Of a DNA stretch of 64,000 nucleotides, positions 24,385 through 53,595 are shown piece after piece. The translations under genes were made by a program, and so were the position numbers. Every line of letters begins with the position of its first letter. Positions within the stretch are counted from its first letter, which is position 1. The stretch is from Eubacteriales bacterium (GTDB taxonomy: Bacteria; Bacillota; Clostridia; Oscillospirales; CAG-272), in the NCBI GenBank assembly GCA_045580325.1, contig JAZNNR010000018.1, forward strand, positions 33,931 to 97,930. The letters run 5' to 3'. Below the pieces are notes generated by a model. That model was not told the origin of the DNA and did not search any database. It was given only the letters and a program-made list of their open reading frames with translations.

Positions 24385-24450
24385 TTTTTGAGCAAAACTC
24401 AAAAGTTCGTTTTACTGCTATTTAGTATAACATATGAAAGGAGTAAGGCA

Positions 24451-24957
24451 ATGATACCTTATTATTTGAAAAAATATATAACTGATGCAAAAGAGAAAAA
24501 GGATTCTACTGTTGGAATACTTGCTTCTTCTACAGGAAATACAAATTTAGAAATATATTTTTACGGTGATACTGTGAAAATAGAAAAAACACCGTACATA
24601 GTCGATGCCGAATTTCCATGCTTGATTGTTGCAAAAGACCCTGTAACAAACGAAAAGTTCACCATTTTTGACGGAATGAAGCACGGATATGATGCAATGT
24701 TTTGCAACGAGCCATGCAATGACGCCACAAGAGAATTAAGACATTATGAGTATTATAACGGGAAAGTGCAAATTACGCTTGGCTACTCAATTGATTACGA
24801 AGATGAACGAGATGAATATGAATTCAACGAAAACGGCGATGTCATATTGACGTATGGAACTTTAGATTGGGAGCAAGCAAAATCTATTGGATTCGATTGG
24901 CTTTCGTTGAAATTTGTAGATGTGAAAAAGGAATTTGTTGATCTTGAGTTGGCTTGA
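24451..24957 (+). CDS. Hypothetical cytosolic acidic protein (168 aa)
   Basis: ATG at 24451 follows GAAAGGAG. The sequence is AT-rich (about 35 percent G+C in one 60-nt line counted by hand). No motif recognised. Confidence 0.65.
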   Translation: MIPYYLKKYITDAKEKKDSTVGILASSTGNTNLEIYFYGDTVKIEKTPYIVDAEFPCLIVAKDPVTNEKFTIFDGMKHGYDAMFCNEPCNDATRELRHYEYYNGKVQITLGYSIDYEDERDEYEFNENGDVILTYGTLDWEQAKSIGFDWLSLKFVDVKKEFVDLELA

Positions 24958-24967
24958 CCACAAATTA

Positions 24968-25116
24968 TAAAATATACCTTTTGCTCTCTTGACCCATATA
25001 GAGAGTGTGTGTTTATTGACACGAAAATAAGTGCAAACCCGTAGGGGCTGGCGCCCACGACAGCCCGTGCGTATATTTAGGCTTTTCGGGACGTCGAGGA
25101 CGCCGGTCCCTACAAC
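24968..25116 (-). repeat. Repeat R copy A (contains a REP-like GTAG-hairpin...hairpin-CTAC element, family E1)
   Basis: 24968-25097 is identical base for base to 25731-25860 (130 nt). Contains GTAG-GGGCTG-gcgcccacga-CAGCCC and GGGAC-gtcgaggacgcc-GGTCC-CTAC. Confidence 0.9.
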
Positions 25117-25175
25117 AGAATGCTCGAAAGTTCATTTTACAGCAGTTTAGTATAACAGATTGAAAGGAAGCAAAA

Positions 25176-25733
25176 ATGCAGAAAAAATCACGCCAAAGAA
25201 AAGAACGACGAAACATGGACCGATCAACCTCTGATGTTCTATCAAGGCAAACGCAAACAATGAAAACAGCTTTCCTCGATTATTTAGGTGCTACAATTAT
25301 GTTTTTTGTGATGGCGCTCGTTGTATTTGTGGTTGGACTTTTGACCGAAGACGCATCGCATTCCAAACGTATTATTTTTGGTGCCACACCTATTATTCTT
25401 GGTTTCACTATATTTTTCGCTTTTCTTTTTCTTCGTCGATTTGTAATTTTTATAAAGATAAATAAGATCAAATCTTCAAGTGAACAAACTATCAAAATTA
25501 CTTGTAAGAAAGTGGCATTTTTAACTCAACCTATATCCAGAAATTCTTTCGTAATTATATGTATTGTTTTAACAGACGAAAACGGCAAAAAGTATTATGA
25601 CATAGTAAATGGAATTTCTGATATTGCTAAAAAAAGAACACGAGCGGAGCTATTAAACGCAAAGATTACACTTAATTGCTATGCGAATACAAAATTTGTG
25701 AAAACCTATCAGGTCGATACAGTCAAGGAGTAA
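25176..25733 (+). CDS. Hypothetical membrane protein (two TM helices plus a C-terminal domain)
   Basis: 185 aa with RBS GAAAGGAAG. It is flanked on both sides by repeat R. Confidence 0.65.
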   Translation: MQKKSRQRKERRNMDRSTSDVLSRQTQTMKTAFLDYLGATIMFFVMALVVFVVGLLTEDASHSKRIIFGATPIILGFTIFFAFLFLRRFVIFIKINKIKSSSEQTIKITCKKVAFLTQPISRNSFVIICIVLTDENGKKYYDIVNGISDIAKKRTRAELLNAKITLNCYANTKFVKTYQVDTVKE

Positions 25734-25882
25734 AATATACCTTTTGCTCTCTTGACCCATATAGAGAGTGTGTGTTTATTGACACGAAAATAAGTGCAAA
25801 CCCGTAGGGGCTGGCGCCCACGACAGCCCGTGCGTATATTTAGGCTTTTCGGGACGTCGAAGGCGCCGTCCCCTACCAAAAG
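25731..25882 (-). repeat. Repeat R copy B (E1 family)
   Basis: The first 130 nt are identical to copy A. It then diverges as GGGACGTCGAAGGCGCCGTCCCCTACCAAAAG. It starts on the stop codon of the preceding gene. Confidence 0.9.
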
Positions 25883-25992
25883 CCAAATTCTATATGCCCT
25901 TACGGATAATAAACCTCGCTATCGCTGCGGCGTATCGAAAAAATAAATTTTACGGAAGTACAAGTTAATATTCCGCTTAAAAGGAGCAAATA

Positions 25993-27096
25993 ATGAAAAG
26001 AAAAACAGGTAAGGATAAGAAGAAAATGACAACAGCGATAGTTTTGATAAGTATAGCGTCGGTGTTAGCTTTGACAGTGATAGGCTGGTGGATATTCTGC
26101 GTTTCAATGTACAATTCCAACTTTAACGTCCGTTGTGATGATTATGAGCCTTTTATGCTGCGAGTAGAAGATTTTGACCGACTTAAGTGCAAGGAATACA
26201 AATTCAAATCAGACAAGGGGCAGGAGCTTGCAGGATATCTATACAGTGCGGGGGAAGATCAGCGCGCAGTCGTGATCATTGCCCACGGATTTGGCGGCGG
26301 TCACAATTCATATATGGATGCAGCCAACTATTTCGCGCAAAACGGTTATTATGTTTTTGCCTACGACGCAACAGGTTGCCTGAGTAGTCAAGGCGACGGC
26401 GTGGGCGGAGTTCCGCAGGGTGTGATAGACCTTGATCACGCCATTTCATTTGTAGAAGAAAATGAGGATATTCCGAAGCTTCCCATCGTTCTTTTCGGAC
26501 ATAGCTGGGGTGCATATTCTGTAAGCGCTGTTTTGACATATCACCCCGAAGTCAAGGCAGTAATCGCATGCTCGGGCTTCAACAGAGCGTCCGATATGTT
26601 TGAATCGGGCGGAAAATCACAGGCAGGCAGCATAATTCATGCCATGATTCCGTTTATCAGAGTCCACGAGCAAGTCAAGTATGGCAAATATGCCTCAAAC
26701 ACCGCGATGGACGGCTTTGAAGCGGCGGAAAACACATCTGTAATGATAGTACATAGCGCAGATGACAACGTTATCGGCATAGAATACGGCTACGACAAAT
26801 ATTATGAAAAATACGAGAATGACGAGCGTTTTGTTTTTGTAAGATATGAGGACAAGGGGCACAACGACATTTTAAAGAACCCCGAGGACACTTATATGGA
26901 CGAAGTACAAGCCGAGTACACAAAGTGGCTTGAAACACTCGATTACGATTATAATTCAAAGGACAACAAAGACCGTTTCAGAGAAGAAAAGATTCAGTAT
27001 CTTAACGAAACTCTTGACCACGCAAGACTGAGTAACAGACTTGATACAGATATGTTCGCGCACTTTTTGGACTTCTATAATCAAGCCGTGCAGTGA
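25993..27096 (+). CDS. Membrane-anchored alpha/beta hydrolase
   Basis: 367 aa. N-terminal TM helix, nucleophile elbow GHSWGAY, HGFGGG oxyanion region, and a late Asp/His (HSADDNV and KGHND). Confidence 0.8.
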   Translation: MKRKTGKDKKKMTTAIVLISIASVLALTVIGWWIFCVSMYNSNFNVRCDDYEPFMLRVEDFDRLKCKEYKFKSDKGQELAGYLYSAGEDQRAVVIIAHGFGGGHNSYMDAANYFAQNGYYVFAYDATGCLSSQGDGVGGVPQGVIDLDHAISFVEENEDIPKLPIVLFGHSWGAYSVSAVLTYHPEVKAVIACSGFNRASDMFESGGKSQAGSIIHAMIPFIRVHEQVKYGKYASNTAMDGFEAAENTSVMIVHSADDNVIGIEYGYDKYYEKYENDERFVFVRYEDKGHNDILKNPEDTYMDEVQAEYTKWLETLDYDYNSKDNKDRFREEKIQYLNETLDHARLSNRLDTDMFAHFLDFYNQAVQ

Positions 27097-27097
27097 T

Positions 27098-27129
27098 ACG
27101 GACCGTCGAGGACGCCGATTCCTACCAAA
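27098..27129 (-). repeat. Partial E1 element (hairpin-CTAC half only)
   Basis: GGACCGTCGAGGACGCCGATTCCTACCAAA begins 2 nt after the hydrolase stop. It shares the GTCGAGGACGCC core with the other copies. Confidence 0.75.
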
Positions 27130-46025: not shown

Positions 46026-46031
46026 TAACTA

Positions 46032-46318
46032 AACCGCTGACGAAGAGATAACGTCGGTAGCGCACTCACAGAGAGTCGGGGATGCTGGGATCCCGACAGA
46101 AAGCGGACCTGCAAATGGACTTCCGAGGGCTTTGACGATAGCGTATTCATACGATTTATACGAAGGTAGTCAAGGACGGGCGCTCCCGTTACAGAGTACA
46201 GATGTATCACGCATCTACAAAGGCGGACGCTTCGTGCGTCAATCAAGGTGGCACCGCGAATCAAATGCAAGCATTTATTCGTCCTTGACAGAACACCCCT
46301 TCTGTCAAGGATTTTTTA
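46032..46318 (+). promoter_or_regulatory. T-box riboswitch leader, probable Trp (UGG) specifier
   Basis: Stem I elements (GAAGAGA, AGAGAG, GCUGGGA). Candidate specifier UGG at 46116-46118, followed by A. T-box core GGTGGCACCGCG at 46247-46258. Terminator TCCTTGACAGAA-cacccct-TCTGTCAAGGA plus T6 at 46282-46317. Confidence 0.85.
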
Positions 46319-46426: not shown

Positions 46427-47644
46427 ATGGAATTTGGCGGAATCAATTTTGACACATATTTTAAAAACTATCCCGATCAGAACGGGTATTTCGGAAAATA
46501 CGGCGGCTGTTACGTATCCGACGAGCTCACAAAGGCGATGCAGGAGATCACAGAGGCTTACTTCACTATCTGCAAGTCGCGCAAGTTCATCGACGAGCTT
46601 CGCCGCATACGCAGAGAATTTCAGGGTCGTCCTACTCCTATTTCCCATCTTGAGCGTCTTTCAAACAAGCTCGGCAACGTTCAGCTCTACGTTAAGCGCG
46701 AGGATCTGAACCATTCGGGCGCACACAAGCTCAATCACTGTATGGGCGAGGCTCTTCTTGCGAAATATATGGGCAAGAAGAAGGTAATTGCCGAAACAGG
46801 TGCAGGACAGCACGGCGTTGCTCTTGCGACAGCTGCGGCATATTTCGGTCTTGAATGCGATATTTATATGGGCTCTGTTGATATTAAGAAGCAGGCTCCC
46901 AACGTTGCAAGAATGAAGATTCTCGGCGCAAACGTTGTTGAGGTAACTCATGGACTTGCAACCCTCAAGGAAGCTGTTGACGACGCTTTCGCGGCATACG
47001 CAAAGGAGTACAAGGACGCTATCTACTGCATCGGTTCGGTTCTCGGACCTCATCCCTTCCCTATGATGGTGCGCGACTTCCAGAGCGTTGTCGGTATCGA
47101 AGCAAGAGAGCAGTTCACCGAAATGACAGGAGAGCTTCCCGACGCGATCGTAGCCTGTGTTGGCGGCGGCTCTAACGCGGCAGGATTTTTCTCGGGATTC
47201 CTCAACGATCCCGTAGAGATATACGGCATCGAGCCTCTCGGACGCGGTCCAAAGCTCGGCGATCACGCAGCAAGTCTTAAATACGGCACGGAAGGCATTA
47301 TGCACGGCTTCAACTCGATCATGCTCAAGGACGAAAACGGCGAGCCTGCGCCCGTTTATTCGGTAGCAAGCGGTCTTGACTATCCTTCCTCGGGTCCCGA
47401 GCACGCATTCCTGCGCGACCTCGGCAGAGTTAAGTACGACGTTATCAACGACGATGAAACTATCGACGCATTCTTCGAGCTTTCGAGAATGGAAGGCATT
47501 ATCCCCGCTATCGAAAGCGCACACGCGGTAGCTTACGGAATCAAGCTCGCACAGCGTATGAGCCACGGCTCTGTTCTTATCAACCTCTCGGGCAGAGGCG
47601 ACAAGGATATGGACTACGTAATTGAGAATTATGGAATAAGATAA
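46427..47644 (+). CDS. trpB: Tryptophan synthase beta chain (stand-alone)
   Basis: 405 aa. Contains [22 protein letters not shown] (PLP lysine region) and GGGSNAAG. No trpA or other trp genes are adjacent. Confidence 0.9.
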
Positions 47645-47763: not shown

Positions 47764-47770
47764 ATAAATT

Positions 47771-47823
47771 TGAGATAAAATCACACCAATATTTAATGCT
47801 GAACTCACCGACAAATTGAAATT
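47771..47823 (-). repeat. Cassette 3'-boundary module B (long form)
   Basis: The minus strand directly after the HAD stop reads AATTTCAATTTGTCGGTGAGTTCAGCATTAAATATTGGTGTGATTTT, homologous to the sequence after the 51761 gene stop. Confidence 0.7.
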
Positions 47824-48606
47824 TTACAAACTCTTTAATATCCTATGTTCTATAAATTTTGCAACACCATCGGCATCGTTGCTTTCTATAACATAATCAG
47901 CAACAGATTTAACTTCATCAATTCCATTGGAAACAGCAATACCCAACCCGCACATTTTTATCGGTTCAATATCGTCTTGGTCATCTCCAAAATAGGCCGT
48001 TTCATTAGGAGAACAGTTACAAATATCCAGCATTGCCTTAATGCCATTCCACTTTGTTGCTGTTGTGTTCATTATTTGCAATAAATAACCATGAGCAATT
48101 GTATAATGCAAATCTTCTGTCAATTCTTTTTTGACAAAGTAAAGTGTTTCCTCGCTGTCAAGGTGAACCAGTATTTTTAATACGCCTTCCTTGTTGGCAA
48201 TGCCAATCAAATTGTTTGAAACAATTGTTTTGTAATCTTCAATAGGATGATTTGAGTATGCACGGTCTCCTGTTTCGAGGGTAATTCGAAGATTAGGATA
48301 GCATTTTAACGCATTCAATAAATGCTCGGCACTTCTTTGACAGATAGCATAATCCACTTGTTGATTTCTGTGGATTATTCTTGCACCATTGGAAACAACC
48401 ATTGCATCAAAGCCAATCAAATCACCAAATTGTTTTGTTGTACGTAATGGTCTGGCTGTGGCAACCATGATGTTAATTCCACGTTTCTTACATTCTTTAA
48501 GGACTTTGATAGTACGCGCGGATAGGGTTTTATCTGTATGTAGCAAAGTTCTATCTAAATCCACGACAATAGTCTTAACACTTGCAGTGTTTATCATTGC
48601 TATCAC
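47824..48606 (-). CDS. Cof-type HAD-IIB family hydrolase
   Basis: 260 aa. Motif I VVDLDRTLL and motif IV FGDDQDDIEPIKMCGLGIAVSNG. Confidence 0.85.
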   Translation of the reverse strand: MIAMINTASVKTIVVDLDRTLLHTDKTLSARTIKVLKECKKRGINIMVATARPLRTTKQFGDLIGFDAMVVSNGARIIHRNQQVDYAICQRSAEHLLNALKCYPNLRITLETGDRAYSNHPIEDYKTIVSNNLIGIANKEGVLKILVHLDSEETLYFVKKELTEDLHYTIAHGYLLQIMNTTATKWNGIKAMLDICNCSPNETAYFGDDQDDIEPIKMCGLGIAVSNGIDEVKSVADYVIESNDADGVAKFIEHRILKSL

Positions 48607-48628
48607 ATCCTTTCGTCAAATTGGAATT

Positions 48629-48952
48629 TTACATTCTAATTTCCGTATGAAAATATTGTTCTTGAAATGCAACTTGCCGCATAATTTCATCTTTTGTAAA
48701 GGATACACCTTCTGGTGCTACAACCCACTTTTCTTCTATGTCATCATATCTATGAATGATGGCAATTACTTTGCCACTAAACTCTTTAATGGGTTCATTT
48801 ACGCCAACTATGTATGCATCTTGTTCTTCTCCGTCAGCAGCTACAATACCCTCTATATAGCCGTAGTTGACAGAATAGTAGATGTCTTTATGCTCTGGAT
48901 GATATGTTCCTAATGGGCGATCAACAATAACCTTAACAAATTTTCCTAACAT
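48629..48952 (-). CDS. Small inorganic-pyrophosphatase-like protein
   Basis: ATG at 48952 follows GAGGT by about 6 nt and gives MLGKFVKVIVDRPLGTYHP...NYGYIEG...DGEEQDAYIVG...RYDDIEEKWVV, which resembles short PPase-family proteins. The alternative start at 48982 overlaps the upstream stop. Confidence 0.6.
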   Translation of the reverse strand: MLGKFVKVIVDRPLGTYHPEHKDIYYSVNYGYIEGIVAADGEEQDAYIVGVNEPIKEFSGKVIAIIHRYDDIEEKWVVAPEGVSFTKDEIMRQVAFQEQYFHTEIRM

Positions 48953-48978
48953 TTTAACCTCGACAAAACAGAATTTGT

Positions 48979-49203
48979 TCATTTCTTTTTCTTGTTAAGA
49001 TAGATAATAACGGCAATCAAAATGGCCACAATTATTGCCGAAATCAATCCACCAACGATCAGCCAATGTGTTTGGTAAGTAAGAAATCTAGCAGTAGGGC
49101 CATCTGCACCACCGATAATGCCAACGGATGAGGCTTCATTGTTACAACCACCAAGGCACAATACAAGAATTAATAATGAAACAAAAATCATTAACTTTTT
49201 CAT
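48979..49203 (-). CDS. Small lipoprotein with a C-terminal TM anchor (74 aa)
   Basis: ATG at 49203 follows AAAGGAG. Lipobox LILVLCLGGC. C-terminal hydrophobic helix plus a KKKK tail. Confidence 0.6.
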   Translation of the reverse strand: MKKLMIFVSLLILVLCLGGCNNEASSVGIIGGADGPTARFLTYQTHWLIVGGLISAIIVAILIAVIIYLNKKKK

Positions 49204-49246
49204 ACACGGACACTCCTTTGTCAAGTTTTTCAACCTATTAGACCTA

Positions 49247-49413
49247 TTCAAGTTTATCGATTAGATACCTAAGTGAAATAATTATATCATAAAAATTCCA
49301 AAAAGTAAATAGGACGGCTCAATTTTTTACAAATTGAACCGCCCTACGTCTTGTAGGGACAGGCGTCCTCGACTGTCCGCTTATTACGGCGGCAGCAAGC
49401 CACCGCCCTACAA
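49247..49413 (+). repeat. E1+P module copy 1 (REP-like element fused to a leftward promoter and shared 5' UTR)
   Basis: About 97 percent identical to 52373-52531 (roughly 5 substitutions and one 8-nt indel by hand alignment). Core: CCGCCCTAC-gtctt-GTAGGGACAG-gcgtcctcga-CTGTCC...GGCGG-cagcaagcca-CCGCCCTAC. Confidence 0.9.
49281..49309 (-). promoter_or_regulatory. Promoter carried by E1+P copy 1, driving the lipoprotein/PPase-like/HAD operon
   Basis: On the minus strand: TTTACT, 17 nt ending TGa, TATAAT. Confidence 0.65.
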
Positions 49414-49519
49414 AAAGAGTCATAATGATTCTATTAAAAACCGTTATGACTCAAAAAGATTGCAAAACATTGCAATTCTAAATAATTTATGGTACAATGT
49501 AAAAGAGGAGCGTGAGTAT

Positions 49520-50392
49520 ATGGAACTGTATGCAAGTGATATGTTCTTTCGTGGCGGTAACGAAAAAGAACAAGCATATGATTGTTGTATTCATGGAAAT
49601 ATTATTTTTAAAATTGGGGATAATTTACTCTCTGATAACACAGAGTGGTGTGTAAGCGCCTCGGCATATAGGTTCTTGCATACTCTCTTTGAAAATCATT
49701 TTATGGGTGCAGAAGAGTTTATGATTTCTTGTTGTGGACATTTTATGGTTCCGTCGGAAGATAAAATGTCTGTAAGTATCGTCGGTTGCAGTAATGGTAT
49801 TGATTTCAACATTATTCACGAAGACGAAAGCATTACCATTGTAACAGCAGATGATGCTGAATATCATATTCCCTTTGAGGACTATAAAAAGGCGGTTATA
49901 TCTTTTGCTGAACAAGTAATGGACTTCTACAAAGCAAACCCACCCCGTGAGTTTGAAGACGATTTTAACAAAGACGGATATAGTGCTTTTATCACCGAGT
50001 GGTATTCGCTATATGACAAAGCAATTTCAATGCTGAATGAGATTCCGAAAATCAATCCCATTACTTTTGAAGATTATGAAGCTTGCACTGAAAATGAAAT
50101 TACGGGTATAAGTAAGGCAGGAATATCGCTTAAATCATTTGGTTTTATCAATTTCAAAGAGTGTGCATATAATTTTAAGCAAACAGAGGGCGGTTCGGGA
50201 AAGTGTGTCGGAGAAAGAGAAATCACAAACCTTTCATTTACTTTCTACACATCGCCCAAACCGATTATGATTAAGTTCATTGAGAAAAACAAGTTTATTG
50301 AGTTTATCACAAAAGAAAACACGATATATCGTTTTAATAAACTCCAAAAAGAGATTTTGAAATATGGATATAGCACAAGAGATATGACATAA
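49520..50392 (+). CDS. Hypothetical protein (290 aa)
   Basis: ATG at 49520 follows AAGAGGAG. Its own promoter is TTGCAA, 17 nt, TACAAT at about 49470-49497. The first 62 codons of track ORF 49334..50392 are read-through of the E1 repeat. Confidence 0.7.
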   Translation: MELYASDMFFRGGNEKEQAYDCCIHGNIIFKIGDNLLSDNTEWCVSASAYRFLHTLFENHFMGAEEFMISCCGHFMVPSEDKMSVSIVGCSNGIDFNIIHEDESITIVTADDAEYHIPFEDYKKAVISFAEQVMDFYKANPPREFEDDFNKDGYSAFITEWYSLYDKAISMLNEIPKINPITFEDYEACTENEITGISKAGISLKSFGFINFKECAYNFKQTEGGSGKCVGEREITNLSFTFYTSPKPIMIKFIEKNKFIEFITKENTIYRFNKLQKEILKYGYSTRDMT

Positions 50393-50404
50393 TAAGGAGG
50401 CTTT

Positions 50405-50683
50405 ATGTCACATAGTAAATATAATAAAAGAGGTCACTCACTATATTTAGATAATTGGAATCCGAATGCAAAAAAATATATCAACGAATGCAAAATATGC
50501 GGATATAAAGGTTATAGTCCTGCAATAGAAGAATCCGACTTTTTAAGCAACAGCGACAAAGATCTCTTTACATTTTCAATTAACAAGGCAATATATGAGG
50601 AATTGACCAAAACATTTTCCGCGTTAGAATTGGATGAGTACGGTCGTTGTAAGGATTGTGCAAGAATTCAAGATAAAAAGTAA
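50405..50683 (+). CDS. Hypothetical zinc-ribbon-like small protein (92 aa)
   Basis: Two Cys pairs (CKICGYKG and CKDCARIQ) and RBS AAGGAGG, 12 nt after the upstream gene. Confidence 0.6.
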   Translation: MSHSKYNKRGHSLYLDNWNPNAKKYINECKICGYKGYSPAIEESDFLSNSDKDLFTFSINKAIYEELTKTFSALELDEYGRCKDCARIQDKK

Positions 50684-50690
50684 TTAGATA

Positions 50691-50727
50691 AAAATGGCTA
50701 TGACATTCCGTGTGTCATAGCCATTTT
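50691..50727. terminator. Bidirectional terminator after the 49520-50683 gene pair
   Basis: AAAATGGCTATGAC-9 nt-GTCATAGCCATTTT. Confidence 0.75.
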
Positions 50728-50733
50728 AAAATA

Positions 50734-50770
50734 ATTTGCACCAAGTTTGCACCAAAGCACAAAACCAAGC
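50734..50770. repeat. Fragment of boundary module B (TTTGCACCAA direct repeats)
   Basis: ATTTGCACCAAGTTTGCACCAAAGCACAAAACCAAGC, compared with GTTGCACCAAATTTGCACCAAAATCACACCAAC at 51695-51727. Confidence 0.6.
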
Positions 50771-50779
50771 ATAAGAAAA

Positions 50780-50812
50780 CCCCGAAAACCGTGATGGTTT
50801 CGGGGTCTTTGA
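50780..50812 (-). terminator. Probable terminator downstream of the GNAT gene
   Basis: CCCCGAAA-10 nt-TTTCGGGG, with TTTTCTT following on the minus strand. Confidence 0.55.
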
Positions 50813-50906
50813 ATACTCTTTGAAATAATACAGGTCATCTCTTTTTTCGGGGGATTAAGCACGCCGTTTGACACCGTAAATAACATTCTGCAAAGAATTT
50901 GCCAAA

Positions 50907-51359
50907 TCACTTTTTCATCTCCATATAAGGAATAACCTCGTAGCCGCATTTTTTATAAACGTTCACGGCTCTTTCGTTTTCTTCTTCGACTTCCAAGCGA
51001 AATATTGCCCCGGGGTACTTATCTTCAATGAATTTAAGAAAACGGCTTCCGATTCCCAAGCCTCTATACTCGGTTTTAATATATATATCCTCGCTCCACA
51101 TACACGGCTTTCCGAATTCTGTGGAAAAGCTTTTGGCAACCATAGCGTATCCTTGTATTTCTTCTGCGTTTTCAAAAATATATCCTTCAAGATACGGATT
51201 ATCACTAAGGCAGGCATTTATGTCTGCTTCGAATATTTCCTGCGAGCCGTTAGTTAATACCGCAGGAGAAGCATAGAAGACTCTCATCATTTCGAGAACC
51301 TGTCCTCTGTCCTTCTCTTCCATACCTCTGATTACACTTTGCACTTTATTTGCCTCCAT
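50907..51359 (-). CDS. GNAT-family N-acetyltransferase
   Basis: Acetyl-CoA motif EYRGLGIGSRFLKFIE. The track start at 51389 lies inside the -10 box of the upstream promoter, so ATG 51359 (MEANKVQ) is preferred. It has no clear Shine-Dalgarno. Confidence 0.8.
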   Translation of the reverse strand: MEANKVQSVIRGMEEKDRGQVLEMMRVFYASPAVLTNGSQEIFEADINACLSDNPYLEGYIFENAEEIQGYAMVAKSFSTEFGKPCMWSEDIYIKTEYRGLGIGSRFLKFIEDKYPGAIFRLEVEEENERAVNVYKKCGYEVIPYMEMKK

Positions 51360-51387
51360 ATTGAAATTCGGGTTATTTATCGTGTGC

Positions 51388-51416
51388 ATTATACCATAAT
51401 TTCGGCAAAAAGTAAA
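51388..51416 (-). promoter_or_regulatory. Promoter carried by E1+P copy 2, driving the GNAT gene
   Basis: On the minus strand: TTTACT, 17 nt ending TGg, TATAAT. Confidence 0.65.
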
Positions 51417-51512
51417 TAGGACTTTTTACAAATTGAACCGCCATACGTCTTGTAGGGACAGGCGTCCTCGACTGTCCACCTGTTACGGCAGCAGTAAGCT
51501 GCCGCCCTACAA
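51388..51512 (+). repeat. E1+P module copy 2
   Basis: AAAAAGTAAATAGGACTTTTTACAAATTGAACCGCCATACGTCTTGTAGGGACAGGCGTCCTCGACTGTCC...GGCAGCAGTAAGCTGCCGCCCTACAA. The second hairpin has compensatory changes (GGCAGC/GCTGCC versus GGCGG/CCGCC). Confidence 0.85.
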
Positions 51513-51516
51513 CCAA

Positions 51517-51578
51517 AACAGACCCCACAAAACCGTGAGGTCTGTAAAAATATTGTTCGAAGAACTTATCTCTTTGAG
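51517..51578 (-). repeat. Copy 3 of the rpsI tail plus terminator (module T)
   Basis: The minus strand reads TCA AAG AGA TAA (S K R stop), then GTTCTTCGAACAATATTTTT, then hairpin ACAGACC..GGTCTGT. It is near-identical to the sequence after the real rpsI stop. Confidence 0.85.
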
Positions 51579-51596
51579 TTTTAGCAATACCGTTTG

Positions 51597-51683
51597 ATAT
51601 CGTGAATATCGTGGAAATATCGTGTGATATCGTGCATTTATCGTGTGTTTTCGTGCGATATCGTGAATATCGTGAGTATCGCC
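51597..51683 (-). repeat. Nine phased (A)TATCGTG / CACGATAT repeats with a period of about 10 bp (array A3)
   Basis: TCGTG begins at 51600, 51609, 51620, 51630, 51641, 51651, 51661, 51670 and 51679. Spacings are 9, 11, 10, 11, 10, 10, 9 and 9. Confidence 0.9.
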
Positions 51684-51689
51684 CTATAA

Positions 51690-51760
51690 AGTGTTGCACC
51701 AAATTTGCACCAAAATCACACCAACATTCAACGCTGTTCTGCTCGACAAATTGGAATTTG
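51690..51760 (-). repeat. Cassette 3'-boundary module B (long form)
   Basis: The minus strand after the TGA of the 51761 gene reads CAAATTCCAATTTGTCGAGCAGAACAGCGTTGAATGTTGGTGTGATTTTGGTGCAAATTTGGTGCAAC. Confidence 0.7.
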
Positions 51761-52363
51761 TCATTTTGTAACACACCAAATAGCTAATGGCACATAGCAG
51801 CTCACTAATACGAGTCTTTGCCAAAGACCACCGTGTCTCAAAACAGTATTTGCGAATTTTTCTTTCTCCCCCATAATGAAGAAGCAGAAGAACAAGAACG
51901 TTGCAATAAAGCTAACAAGCGAGATCGCTCCCATAATTATATCTCCCGCTTGAAACTGCATTATTGCCAAGAGCAACGGTACAGCAATTAATGTCATAAA
52001 TCCGATCGCAGAAGCACCGCCGTGAATTTTAGTCAGTGCATCCTCGTCTTGTCTGTTCTCGTTCAATGGACAAAAGCCCGAAATAATCTCACAGCCGATA
52101 CCGTATATTGCAAGTAATATCCATATTGCGATTGCCAAGCCACCGATGTTTTCTTGATACAACGCATACGGAGCAATACAGAAAACGACACCCGAGAGAA
52201 TGCACCACACATTGTAAATCCACTTCACAGGACTTTGCCGTGAGCCCAGTACCGAGAGTGCCATTTCTTTATGCTTATAGTTTGGATAAAAATGCGCAAG
52301 CAACAATGGTAGTAGATTATCTGCTACCAAAATAATAATCCATAATATTTTCATGTATTTCAT
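51761..52363 (-). CDS. Integral membrane protein (DUF998-like, six TM helices)
   Basis: 200 aa, hydrophobic throughout. The N-terminus ILWIIILVADNLLPLLLAHFYPNYKHKEMALSVLG resembles DUF998 as I recall it. Confidence 0.65.
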   Translation of the reverse strand: MKYMKILWIIILVADNLLPLLLAHFYPNYKHKEMALSVLGSRQSPVKWIYNVWCILSGVVFCIAPYALYQENIGGLAIAIWILLAIYGIGCEIISGFCPLNENRQDEDALTKIHGGASAIGFMTLIAVPLLLAIMQFQAGDIIMGAISLVSFIATFLFFCFFIMGEKEKFANTVLRHGGLWQRLVLVSCYVPLAIWCVTK

Positions 52364-52372
52364 CTCGTCAAA

Positions 52373-52531
52373 TTCAAGTTTATCGATTAGATACCTAAGT
52401 GAAATAATTATATCATAAAAATCCCAAAAAGTAAATAGGATTTTTTACAAATTAAACCGCCCTACGTCTTGTAGGGACAGGCGTCCTCGACTGTGCGACT
52501 ATTACGGCGGCAGCAAGCCACCGCCCTACAA
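52373..52531 (+). repeat. E1+P module copy 3
   Basis: About 97 percent identical to copy 1. It is directly followed by module T copy 2. Confidence 0.9.
52407..52435 (-). promoter_or_regulatory. Promoter carried by E1+P copy 3, driving the DUF998-like gene
   Basis: On the minus strand: TTTACT, 17 nt ending TGa, TATAAT. Confidence 0.65.
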
Positions 52532-52535
52532 CAAA

Positions 52536-52603
52536 AACAGACCCCACAAAAATGTGAGGTCTGTAAAAATATTGTTCGAAGAACTTATCTCTTCGAGAAC
52601 TGT
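52536..52603 (-). repeat. Copy 2 of the rpsI tail plus terminator (module T)
   Basis: The minus strand reads CAG TTC TCG AAG AGA TAA (Q F S K R stop), against the real gene CAG TTC AGC AAG AGA TAA. The same spacer and terminator hairpin follow. Confidence 0.9.
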
Positions 52604-52616
52604 TACGACGTTAAGA

Positions 52617-52639
52617 AAACACTCCGGTGGAGTGTTTTA
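52617..52639. terminator. Perfect bidirectional hairpin
   Basis: AAAACACTCC-ggt-GGAGTGTTTT. Confidence 0.5.
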
Positions 52640-52685
52640 GTCGGAACCGCAGCGGCTATGCCGCGAGGATACCTCAGTTCAGCCG

Positions 52686-52722
52686 CAAAAATAAACAGAC
52701 CCCACAAAAACGTGAGGTCTGT
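52686..52722 (-). terminator. rpsI intrinsic terminator (module T, native copy)
   Basis: On the minus strand: ACAGACCTCAC-guuuuu-GUGGGGUCUGU followed by UUAUUUUU, 20 nt after the rpsI stop. Confidence 0.8.
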
Positions 52723-52742
52723 AAAAATATTGTTCGAAGTGA

Positions 52743-53144
52743 TTATCTCTTGCTGAACTGAGGTGCACGACGTGCTGCCTTGAGACCGTACTTCTTTCTT
52801 TCCTTCATACGAGGGTCGCGAGTGAGGAATCCTGCCTTCTTAAGAGGTGCGCGGAATTCATCGCCTGCGAGAAGAAGTGCTCTTGCAATACCGTGGCGAA
52901 TTGCTCCTGCCTGTCCGGAGAAGCCGCCGCCCTTAACGGTGCAAACTACATCGAACTTACCAACTGTGTCGGTAACTCCGAAGGGCTGGTTTATAACCAA
53001 CTTGAGTGTGTCAAGTCCAAAATAATCATCAATGTCGCGTCCGTTGATGGTAACCTTACCGGTGCCGGCGAACAAACGAACTCTTGCAACAGATTTCTTT
53101 CTTCTTCCTGTGCCGTAAAAATACGGCTTTGCGCTTGTATACAT
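52743..53144 (-). CDS. rpsI: 30S ribosomal protein S9
   Basis: 133 aa with [19 protein letters not shown] and a C-terminal [20 protein letters not shown]. Confidence 0.97.
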
Positions 53145-53166: not shown

Positions 53167-53595
53167 TTAAAATTCGTAGTTAACGGGCTGCTGTGCCTCG
53201 TTGTTGTGGTTTGCGCCACGATAGATCTTAAGACGTGTGAGGCTCTTTTCGCCGATCGAGTTCTTAGGAAGCATACCCTTAACTGCAAGCTTCATTGCAA
53301 GGTCGGGCTTTTCGTTCATAAGAGTGCGATAGTTTGTAGCCTTGAGTCCGCCGATGTATCCGGAGTGGCGATAGTAGAACTTCTGATCAAGCTTCTTACC
53401 TGTAAGAATAGCCTTTTCAGCGTTTACGATGATTACGTATTCGCCGCAATCAACGTGGGGTGTGTATTCGGGACGGTGCTTACCGTTAAGAATGTTTGCC
53501 GCTGCTGCTGCAGTCTTACCGAGGGGCTTATTTGCCGCATCGATAATGTACCACTTACGCTCAACGGTTTCTTTTTTTGCCATGTAAGTTGACAT
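53167..53595 (-). CDS. rplM: 50S ribosomal protein L13
   Basis: 142 aa with KWYIIDAANKPLGKTA and YYRHSGYIGGLK. Confidence 0.97.
   Translation of the reverse strand: MSTYMAKKETVERKWYIIDAANKPLGKTAAAAANILNGKHRPEYTPHVDCGEYVIIVNAEKAILTGKKLDQKFYYRHSGYIGGLKATNYRTLMNEKPDLAMKLAVKGMLPKNSIGEKSLTRLKIYRGANHNNEAQQPVNYEF

Follow-up and report, generated by a model that had tools for sequence, protein, structure and literature searches.

The question raised by this locus is why the end of one gene should be found three times in succession. The locus lies in a 64,000-nucleotide stretch from an Eubacteriales bacterium (contig JAZNNR010000018.1, positions 33,931 to 97,930), the whole of which is hereafter called the window, and the gene is rpsI, which encodes ribosomal protein S9. 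A first-pass annotation, made from the letters alone, described three copies of the rpsI tail with its terminator, took the two downstream copies for fragments of other functional rpsI alleles that had arrived with incoming DNA, and proposed that the last codons and the terminator of rpsI serve as an attachment site. Integrative conjugative elements (ICEs) and elements that are integrative and mobilizable (IMEs) with tyrosine integrases are known to target the 3' end of rpsI in streptococci (PMC4701971, PMC5704250). In this study, the locus was compared with contigs encoding the same RpsI protein, with related genomes and with viral and metagenomic sequences. Taken together, the comparisons make it probable that the rpsI end is an insertion hotspot, or attachment site, where several kinds of element insert by site-specific recombination, and the ladder of copies would represent successive insertions.

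Three copies of the rpsI end in the window

The target gene rpsI occupies 52743..53144 on the minus strand, as identified by its open reading frame (ORF) and by PF00380. The ORF is complete, and the inserts described below leave the coding sequence intact. Its native end reads CAG TTC AGC AAG AGA TAA and is followed by a 20-nt spacer and then by a hairpin, ACAGACC..GGTCTGT, at 52722-52695. Mapping of the breakpoints, which the first-pass annotation had recommended, gave a block of 59 nt common to all three copies, consisting of AAGAGATAA, the 20-nt spacer and the 12-bp terminator hairpin. The block is located at 52693-52751 (the true rpsI end), 52535-52593 and 51516-51574, with pairwise identities of 55/59, 57/59 and 55/59 (93-97%). 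Two patterns, one for the hairpin and one for the tail, spacer and start of the hairpin, were searched with up to three mismatches; each matched the window exactly three times, at the same three sites (hairpins at 52695-52722, 52537-52564 and 51518-51545), against 0 matches expected from 100 shuffles. No further copy of the block was found elsewhere in the 64-kb window, and the reported number of copies was thus confirmed.

Copy 1 (52693..52751, minus strand) is the native core, made up of AAGAGATAA, a spacer of TCAC plus TTCGAACAATATTTTT, and the hairpin, and was delimited by pattern search and terminator score. Copy 2 (52535..52601, minus strand), delimited by pattern search, comprises the displaced tail AGTTCTCGAAGAGATAA (52585-52601) and the 59-nt core, and copy 3 (51516..51578, minus strand) comprises the displaced tail CTCAAAGAGATAA (51566-51578) and the core. 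All three hairpins score as intrinsic terminators, with a 12-bp stem, six G-C pairs, a 4-nt loop and a T-run. The serine codon of the tail is AGC in copy 1, TCG in copy 2 and TCA in copy 3, as had been read before; between the native gene and copy 2 all three positions of this codon are changed, and the neighbouring 9 nt are identical. Copy 2 had also been described as having the same spacer and hairpin as the gene. The block is indeed near-identical, but the first 4 nt past the stop codon are TCAC in copy 1 and GTTC in copies 2 and 3, and the hairpin loops differ (CG, CA and GG in copies 1, 2 and 3, respectively).

The rpsI site among contigs encoding an identical RpsI

The exact RpsI protein of the window is present on 12 public contigs, annotated as PF00380, and at least four states of the rpsI site were observed among contigs encoding it. 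A single 59-nt block is found in L003, where the order is rpsI, terminator, a REP-like (repetitive extragenic palindrome-like) element and a gene for a GNAT acetyltransferase. This block aligns to window copy 1 on the left (99.4%, up to 52693) and to copy 3 with its downstream sequence on the right (95%, from 51574); the window therefore carries 1119 bp that are extra relative to L003 and bounded by the repeat. In L001, L002, L004, L005 and L006, homology to the window stops exactly at the last base of the rpsI stop codon, and the contigs continue for at least 10 kb past it with genes for ParA, ParB and a 1563-aa SpaA-domain protein. The functional rpsI of L007-L010 has TCG and encodes the identical protein; in L007 it is followed by an insert of about 190 nt, which is a variant of the mini element E described below other than that of the window, and then by a displaced TCC tail.

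Empty and occupied versions of the site thus both exist (L003 versus the window, L007 and L001), and the 59-nt block was found in conspecific contigs only after rpsI. In the window, in L001-L007 and in the more distant loci L024, L046 and L048, the insert boundaries coincide with the rpsI stop codon or follow it. The rpsI site is therefore polymorphic, always at the same nucleotide position, among contigs that very probably belong to a single species. An exact look-up of the DUF998, GNAT and HAD proteins encoded downstream of rpsI in the window, for more conspecific arrangements, returned one 761-nt contig or nothing. The sequence TCGGACGCAAATTTACAAC, present after rpsI in L057, L066, L078 and L096, was considered as the start of the large element and withdrawn; these loci are without ParA/ParB homologs, and it may be native flank.

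RE cassettes in other species

Copy 3 is directly abutted by a module of about 190 nt, named RE as the right end of a cassette, C1 (51579..51765, minus strand; repeats defined with TRF). It contains D7, TTTTGGTGCAAATTTGGTGCAAC, two 11-nt TTGGTGCAAAT repeats (GGTGCAA twice), about eight copies of CACGATAT at a period of about 10.5 nt, and AAACGGTATTGCTAAAA, which runs directly into CTCAAAGAGATAA. RE was also found in L024 (two copies) and L046, at 94% identity to the window, in L048 (89%) and in L038 (70%), always downstream of rpsI and abutting CTCNAAGAGATAA / CTCCAAGAGATAA, and the junction between RE and the tail is fixed to the nucleotide across species. The RpsI proteins of these genomes are only 77-81% identical to that of the window, and the conservation of the mobile modules at the displaced tails greatly exceeds that of the hosts. 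A module of promoter and 5' untranslated region (UTR), CTATTTACTTTT..TATGGTATAAT..AATCGATAAACTTGAA, is common to the arrays, and the cargo gene differs in each unit; L024, L046, L048, L094 and L003 have the motifs CTATTTACTTTT and AATCGATAAACTTGAA in their arrays. Two RE cassettes stand in tandem in L024, and tandem arrays recur in several independent assemblies.

The boundaries are most informative in L024 and L048. The flank adjacent to rpsI is of the same element type in both, with its own terminator, an inverted tail copy and then CATGAATTG repeats, and the copy after RE has another spacer and terminator, like the native flank of L046 or L044. The cassettes are bounded by CTCNAAGAGATAAT repeats, and the two junctions share only 13-14 nt, with different spacers and terminators on their flanks. 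A junction repeat of this length is too short for ordinary homologous recombination and argues for site-specific recombination in these two genomes. In L024 the gene keeps TCG and the displaced copy has TCC, which places the crossover to the right of the serine codon; it would lie within or just after AAGAGATAA there, and in the window it could also be in the spacer or the terminator.

The tail and spacer of copy 2 (52576-52596, minus strand) form a dyad, TCGAAGA-GATAAGT-TCTTCGA, centred on the stop codon, whose pairing is completed by the TCG codon. The dyad was considered as a core site and dropped, since the RE-linked tails of other species do not keep it. The direct repeat TTTGGTGCAAATTTGGTGCAA is present twice in the island downstream of rpsI (50736-50756 and 51694-51720) and also in unrelated viral contigs, namely L014/L017 (IMGVR_UViG_3300046506_000122), L016 and L018; in L014 it has a tRNA 3' end and terminator on one side and an integrase gene on the other. 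CACGATATTCACGATATC occurs once each in five viral contigs (L220-L224), after a conserved terminator, and in L223 it follows closely on the 3' end of a tyrosine recombinase gene. The occurrence of the TTGGTGCAA direct repeats and of CACGATATTCACGATATC beside integrase genes in unrelated viral contigs is suggestive of arm-type sites, although such sequences are too short to build on.

Mini element E between native and displaced tails

The gap between copies 1 and 2 is filled by a mini element of about 90 nt, E (52602..52692, minus strand), which was delimited by comparison with L007, L067, L086 and L211. It comprises a hairpin H1 (52652-52664), a helix P1, a core of CTAAAA, a P2 hairpin and TTTCTTAACG (52609-52640), and the P1 3' strand TCGTAAC (52602-52608), which runs straight into AGTTCTCG AAG AGA TAA. 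The CGTCGT before copy 2, formerly read as decayed arginine codons of rpsI, is present but corresponds to the conserved TTAACG of E and the P1 3' strand; at this position other copies of E read TTAACGCCCCGAC, TTCACGCTTCGAC and TTAACGCCGAGAC. At 52671..52683 (plus strand), in the left arm of E, the native rpsI tail recurs in inverted form as ACCTCAGTTCAGC, a perfect 13-nt complement of 52752-52764. The left arm often contains an inverted copy of the target tail, and that of the window matches the native AGC allele. Inverted rpsI tails also occur after rpsI, where the inserted units have their left end, in L048 (3357-3383; 13+13 nt), L024 (10460-10475; 16 nt) and L043 (13 nt). Tail, terminator and inverted tail in the window (52671-52683 with 52752-52764) are predicted to be capable of forming one long hairpin.

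E stands between native and displaced rpsI tails in five genomes (the window, L007, L067, L086 and L211), and in L135 it is cut by the contig end. The serine codon of the E-linked tail is TCC in four loci, TCA in one and TCG in the window. Compensatory changes were observed in 14 of the 29 predicted pairs among the five complete rpsI-linked copies. The core was recovered from at least 120 metagenome loci, in gut, fermentation and sediment samples, with a pattern that left the pairing of its two variable stretches unconstrained; among the matches listed, 120 of 134 copies show perfect complementarity between these stretches, and 42 different stem pairs occur. Pairing of P1 at a fixed offset was weakly above the control over all metagenome copies, and P1 is supported only in the rpsI-linked subset. 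With its A-tract, stem and U-tract, E resembles a bidirectional terminator.

The metagenome copies show a wider range of targets. Among the matches listed, 30 copies of E lie within 250 nt downstream of a tRNA 3' end, 23 in the opposite orientation to the tRNA and 7 in the same orientation. In many copies the final 15-24 nt of the tRNA, in some cases together with the terminator, are present as direct repeats on both sides of E, and some copies are in tandem arrays. E is flanked by tails of its target genes, which vary with the target, measure 13-24 nt or more and in some cases take in the terminator (24-84 nt). Both the inverted tails at the left end and the two orientations of E could be accounted for by a hairpin-forming unit with two inverted copies of the core.

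Searches of Rfam 15 with E from the window and from seven E-bearing loci gave no match at E-values up to 1, and no description of E was found in the literature searched. None of the 134 copies listed belonged to a long element ending in E, that is, with the tail repeated more than 400 nt upstream. No integrase directly adjoins E or the RE arrays. Three consecutive tyrosine-recombinase-like ORFs are located about 460 nt from a copy of E in L126 (4991-8200), and an integrase-like ORF lies 1.25 kb from E in L127. Metagenome copies of E in L146 (2740-2772), L173 (605-637) and L162 lie a few hundred nucleotides upstream of homologs of p51, ParA and ParB, whose genes form the opening of the large insertion after rpsI in L001.

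rpsI alleles, displaced tails and integrases in relatives

A total of 80 loci from species-representative genomes of Oscillospiraceae-like Clostridia, mostly metagenome-assembled genomes from animal and human guts, were used for comparison. The best RpsI identity among them was 86%, so the species of the window is not among these representatives. Functional rpsI genes of the relatives use all four serine codons (AGC, TCC, TCA and TCG), and TCG is also the codon of functional genes encoding the identical RpsI; the proposal that the displaced fragments derive from other functional alleles is supported to this extent. Spacers and terminators of displaced copies resemble the native rpsI flanks of other species, and displaced tails are found downstream of rpsI in L036, L054, L067, L074 and L086.

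Tyrosine integrases were found at the same site in relatives. In 6 of the 80 representatives (L069, L080, L081, L087, L089 and L092) such a gene lies 120-500 nt after rpsI in convergent orientation, and Pfam confirms tyrosine integrases in L011 and L012. Matches to the final ~55 nt of rpsI were found in nine unannotated human faecal records named "Bacteriophage sp.", in most of them close to the record ends. Among gut virome sequences, MT836114 contains an rpsI end followed by an integrase, and in MT835962 a displaced rpsI tail of 54 nt comes after an integrase gene; PF00589 is matched by both integrases. The block of tail, spacer and hairpin gave zero matches in viral contigs, and the E-tail junction gave none. 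On this comparative evidence, namely the polymorphism of the site, the integrases in 6/80 relatives and the conserved modules, the earlier suggestion that the last rpsI codons and terminator constitute an attachment site is supported.

In L074 (10402-13075; Lawsonibacter, and likewise in L088), 2.6 kb without an integrase separate rpsI, with AGC, from a displaced 54-nt TCC tail. The products, putative and judged from their sequences, include a 465-aa Fe-S/hydrogenase-like and a rubrerythrin-like protein, and the stretch is another integrase-less island at the rpsI end.

Organization of the array in the window

The array forms a low-GC island at about 47766-52690, with 32-41% G+C against 47-54% in the flanking core genes. 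It encodes accessory proteins, including a DUF998 protein, a GNAT acetyltransferase, two unknown proteins, two small proteins and a HAD hydrolase, and Pfam analysis of the island ORFs revealed no recombinase. Upstream of rpsI lies rplM (53167-53595).

Beyond E and copy 2, cassette C1 begins with a REP-like element, D2 (52440-52534), and a promoter and 5' UTR module, D5 (52372-52440; TTTACT-17-TATAAT at 52435-52407), together at 52372..52534 on the minus strand according to repeat and promoter analysis. Its cargo (51761..52363, minus strand) is a DUF998 membrane protein of 200 aa (Pfam PF06197, E 4.6e-20), whose gene is missing from L003, and is followed by RE and copy 3. Cassette C2 (50907..51515, minus strand) contains a copy of the REP-like D2 (51421-51515), a promoter (51416-51388) and the GNAT acetyltransferase gene (50907-51389), and in L003 it stands directly after the single rpsI terminator. 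Each cassette carries its own TTTACT-17-TATAAT promoter.

A fourth, decayed site was recognized at 50736..50870 (minus strand) from its sequence and by blastn. It contains a short RE end, TCAAACGGCGTGCTTAATCCCCCG, the tail AAAAAAGAGATGA (50835-50847), a terminator, CCCCGAAA..TTTCGGGG (50780-50806), and GGTGCAA twice (50736-50756). Its terminator differs from that of copies 1-3, and blastn showed the site to be similar to the native rpsI flank of L027/L021, to the copy displaced in L007 and to the L001 insertion at its left end. The distal unit (47766..49416, minus strand) consists of D2 (49322-49416), a D5 promoter (49246-49314), genes for proteins of 90 aa and 117 aa, the HAD hydrolase gene (47824-48606) and a truncated RE/D7 end (47766-47824), where the low-GC island ends.

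Repeats are not confined to the array. The REP-like repeats D2 and D8 are dispersed in the window, and a second repeat-rich region at 24398-27125 has a 146-nt direct repeat of 97% identity (24968-25113 and 25731-25876), a promoter-like 38-mer repeated at 24398 and 25123, and three copies (25087, 25850 and 27099) of a REP-like motif, CGGGACGTCGAGGACGCCGGTCCCTAC, related to the D2 beside the rpsI terminators. A T-box leader was detected at 46028-46289 (plus strand), upstream of a PALP (tryptophan-synthase-beta-like) gene at 46427-47644; its score of 85.8 bits is slightly under the Rfam gathering score of 93, and a default search misses it.

Weighing the explanations

Several observations weigh against insertion by site-specific recombination at the rpsI end. 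No recombinase was detected in the 64-kb window with phmmer and a custom integrase hidden Markov model over all ORFs of at least 120 aa, nor did the RE arrays of four other species show one within 10 kb. RE has no matches in viral contigs, phage records or plasmids, and no autonomous parent is known. No functional rpsI allele with exactly the GTTC spacer was found in the contigs and relatives compared. Copies 2 and 3 share 191 nt at 88% (51388-51578 versus 52407-52597), in which the ~130 nt past the block comprise the REP-like element and the start of the promoter; a repeat of this length would permit homologous recombination, or the chaining of strain variants by an assembler. In the window, L067, L086 and L046, nearly the same terminator stands on either side of the insert, and a purely conservative exchange fits this only if the element carried a host-like terminator.

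Some of these points would be expected if ordinary homologous recombination with related strains, or chaining by the assembler through the repeat of about 190 nt, had built the array with no dedicated recombinase. The long blocks shared between units (the 191 nt, D5 at 99% and D7), the lack of an integrase nearby and the possibility that the window comes from a metagenome assembly all agree with this, as does the swap of cargo between conserved flanks, where D5 and D7 enclose the operon for the 90-aa, 117-aa and HAD proteins in the window (47766-49314) and a DMP19-family gene in L003 (4642-5232). We consider it unlikely, however, because the junction repeats of L024/L048 are very short and stand between unrelated flanks, tandem arrays occur in independent assemblies, the RE-to-tail junction is exact in different species, and the large L001 insertion begins exactly at the stop codon. 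The 191-nt similarity of copies 2 and 3 and the nearly identical terminators could likewise have arisen without mobile DNA, if the 3' flank of rpsI had been duplicated locally in tandem and had then decayed at random. This is highly improbable: RE and E recur at the same junction in other species with a conservation well beyond that of the hosts, contigs with identical RpsI differ at the site, the serine codon is altered at all three positions beside 9 unaltered nucleotides, and E-linked tails have TCN in six independent loci. The first-pass annotation, too, had judged the codon pattern unexpected under decay of a local duplication.

The hairpin and spacer could also belong to a generic terminator family, with the SKR-stop-like sequence arising by chance, an objection foreseen from the outset. 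The hairpins are good intrinsic terminators, and the REP-like D2 and D8 are dispersed in the window. This explanation hardly deserves credence, since the block is confined to this locus within the window, has no other position than after rpsI in conspecific contigs and is not found at all in viral contigs, and tails adjoining RE or E elsewhere keep the same rpsI tail with terminators that differ between species. For E itself, a further possibility is that it is not mobile and serves chiefly in 3' UTRs, as a functional structured RNA or terminator-insulator, with secondary flanking duplications. Its conserved, covarying structure, its terminator-like A-tract, stem and U-tract, its orientation, which at this locus is that of rpsI, and the inverted tail, which could pair with the end of the rpsI mRNA, speak for such a role. 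E is nevertheless present or absent among contigs with identical RpsI, with different variants in the window and L007; it occurs in either orientation relative to tRNA genes, it forms tandem arrays, and many taxa show duplicated target tails on its flanks. These features are unexpected of a fixed regulatory RNA, and we regard a purely non-mobile role as improbable; the structured-RNA and mobile readings of E are not mutually exclusive.

Comparison with known systems

A close parallel is provided by the streptococcal ICEs and IMEs at the rpsI 3' end (IMESag-rpsI, and ICEs with an ICESt3-type conjugation module), which use the same gene and the same end (PMC4701971, PMC5704250, PMC5090054). As in those elements, the gene is kept intact, direct repeats containing the gene end form the bounds, and tyrosine integrases are present at the site in relatives of the window genome. 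The host, in contrast, belongs to a different order of Firmicutes, the uncultured Oscillospiraceae-like Clostridia, and the window units are 0.1-1.2 kb long, have no integrase, relaxase or conjugation genes, and form conserved non-autonomous families. None of the window units has an integrase of its own; integrases at the site were found only in other genomes.

Integration, decay to integrase-less units and subsequent accretion is a published model (PMC5704250 section 2.3; precedent also in PMC4701971). The cis-mobilizable elements (CIMEs) and the tandem accretion of ICESt1/ICESt3 at fda resemble the array in having integrase-less units with attachment (att) sites, stacked at one target with internal hybrid att sites (PMC5704250). 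The window units likewise keep att sites and lack genes for integration and transfer. CIMEs are described as decay products of ICEs or IMEs, whereas the window units share promoter and RE modules across species and carry one cargo gene each. The fourth site has a terminator type in common with the left end of the L001 insertion, yet the RE family is conserved and has no known autonomous parent; the RE units look like a dedicated cassette family and not like random remnants.

Arrays of staphylococcal cassette chromosome (SCC) and pseudo-SCC elements at the 3' end of rlmH (orfX) in staphylococci also consist of cassettes bounded by direct repeats with the gene end, some of them without a recombinase. 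SCC elements use serine recombinases (Ccr), their cassettes are tens of kb long, and their sequences are not known to be related to the window units. Integron arrays share with the RE arrays the tandem single-gene cassettes at one site, a conserved 3' recombination module and a recombinase outside the cassettes. They differ in that no IntI/attI is adjacent here (neither the window nor the 10 kb around the arrays showed a tyrosine recombinase), the cassettes have their own promoters where integron cassettes are mostly promoterless, the target is a gene end, and RE consists of direct repeats and not of an attC palindrome with RYYYAAC and GTTRRRY boxes.

Attachment sites that act as folded single strands exist in CTX phage, as attP(+), and in integrons, as attC. 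E, at about 90-160 nt, has inverted and direct target copies around a structured spacer, and by analogy a single strand of E would fold into a hairpin presenting a duplex copy of the target; E has no known sequence similarity to these sites. Miniature inverted-repeat transposable elements (MITEs) and REP elements resemble E in being small, non-coding, structured, multi-copy and dispersed, which E is over its metagenome loci. Unlike them, E is without transposase-type terminal inverted repeats and without a short fixed target duplication, and strongly prefers the 3' ends of tRNA genes and rpsI.

Proposed mechanism and implications

Under site-specific insertion at the rpsI end, the last rpsI codons, the stop codon, the spacer and the terminator would act as the chromosomal attachment site. 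An incoming element would have one end with an rpsI tail of its own (TCN AAG AGA TAA) and another end with a spacer and terminator; because it carries both, rpsI would stay intact and terminated, and the older tail and terminator would be pushed downstream. Repeated insertion, or tandem accretion, would build the ladder, which away from rpsI would read E, then C1 (promoter, DUF998, RE), then C2 (promoter, GNAT, short RE end), and then an older unit with a decayed tail. The order of these events and the position of the crossover are inferred from the arrangement. RE, with its two 11-nt repeats and about eight repeats of 10.5 nt beside the core, is a putative protein-binding arm of the attachment site. 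As no unit encodes a recombinase, the units behave as non-autonomous and would need an integrase encoded elsewhere, most likely a tyrosine integrase supplied in trans.

We tentatively suggest, and regard as a possibility below even chances, that two undescribed non-autonomous site-specific families are involved. RE cassettes may be units of about 1 kb, with a promoter, one cargo gene and a repeat-rich arm, that form integron-like arrays at the rpsI stop codon in several uncultured Clostridia. E may be a unit of about 90-160 nt, distributed from gut to sediment bacteria, with a covarying hairpin core between inverted and direct target copies; it may insert in both orientations, with tRNA genes and rpsI as targets at their 3' ends, and may recombine as a folded single strand or through integrases acting in trans. 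Targeting of rpsI is known from streptococci, whereas the cassette family and E look new.

The locus extends integration at the rpsI 3' end to uncultured gut Clostridia, where the site is used differently, by arrays of tiny, integrase-less, single-gene cassettes. If these units move in trans, they would offer a cheap route for the exchange of single genes between species, and tools that rely on integrases to find mobile elements would miss them. E marks insertion events at tRNA and rpsI ends in many phyla, and it would be a tractable substrate for understanding how short non-coding DNA reaches the attachment sites at gene ends.

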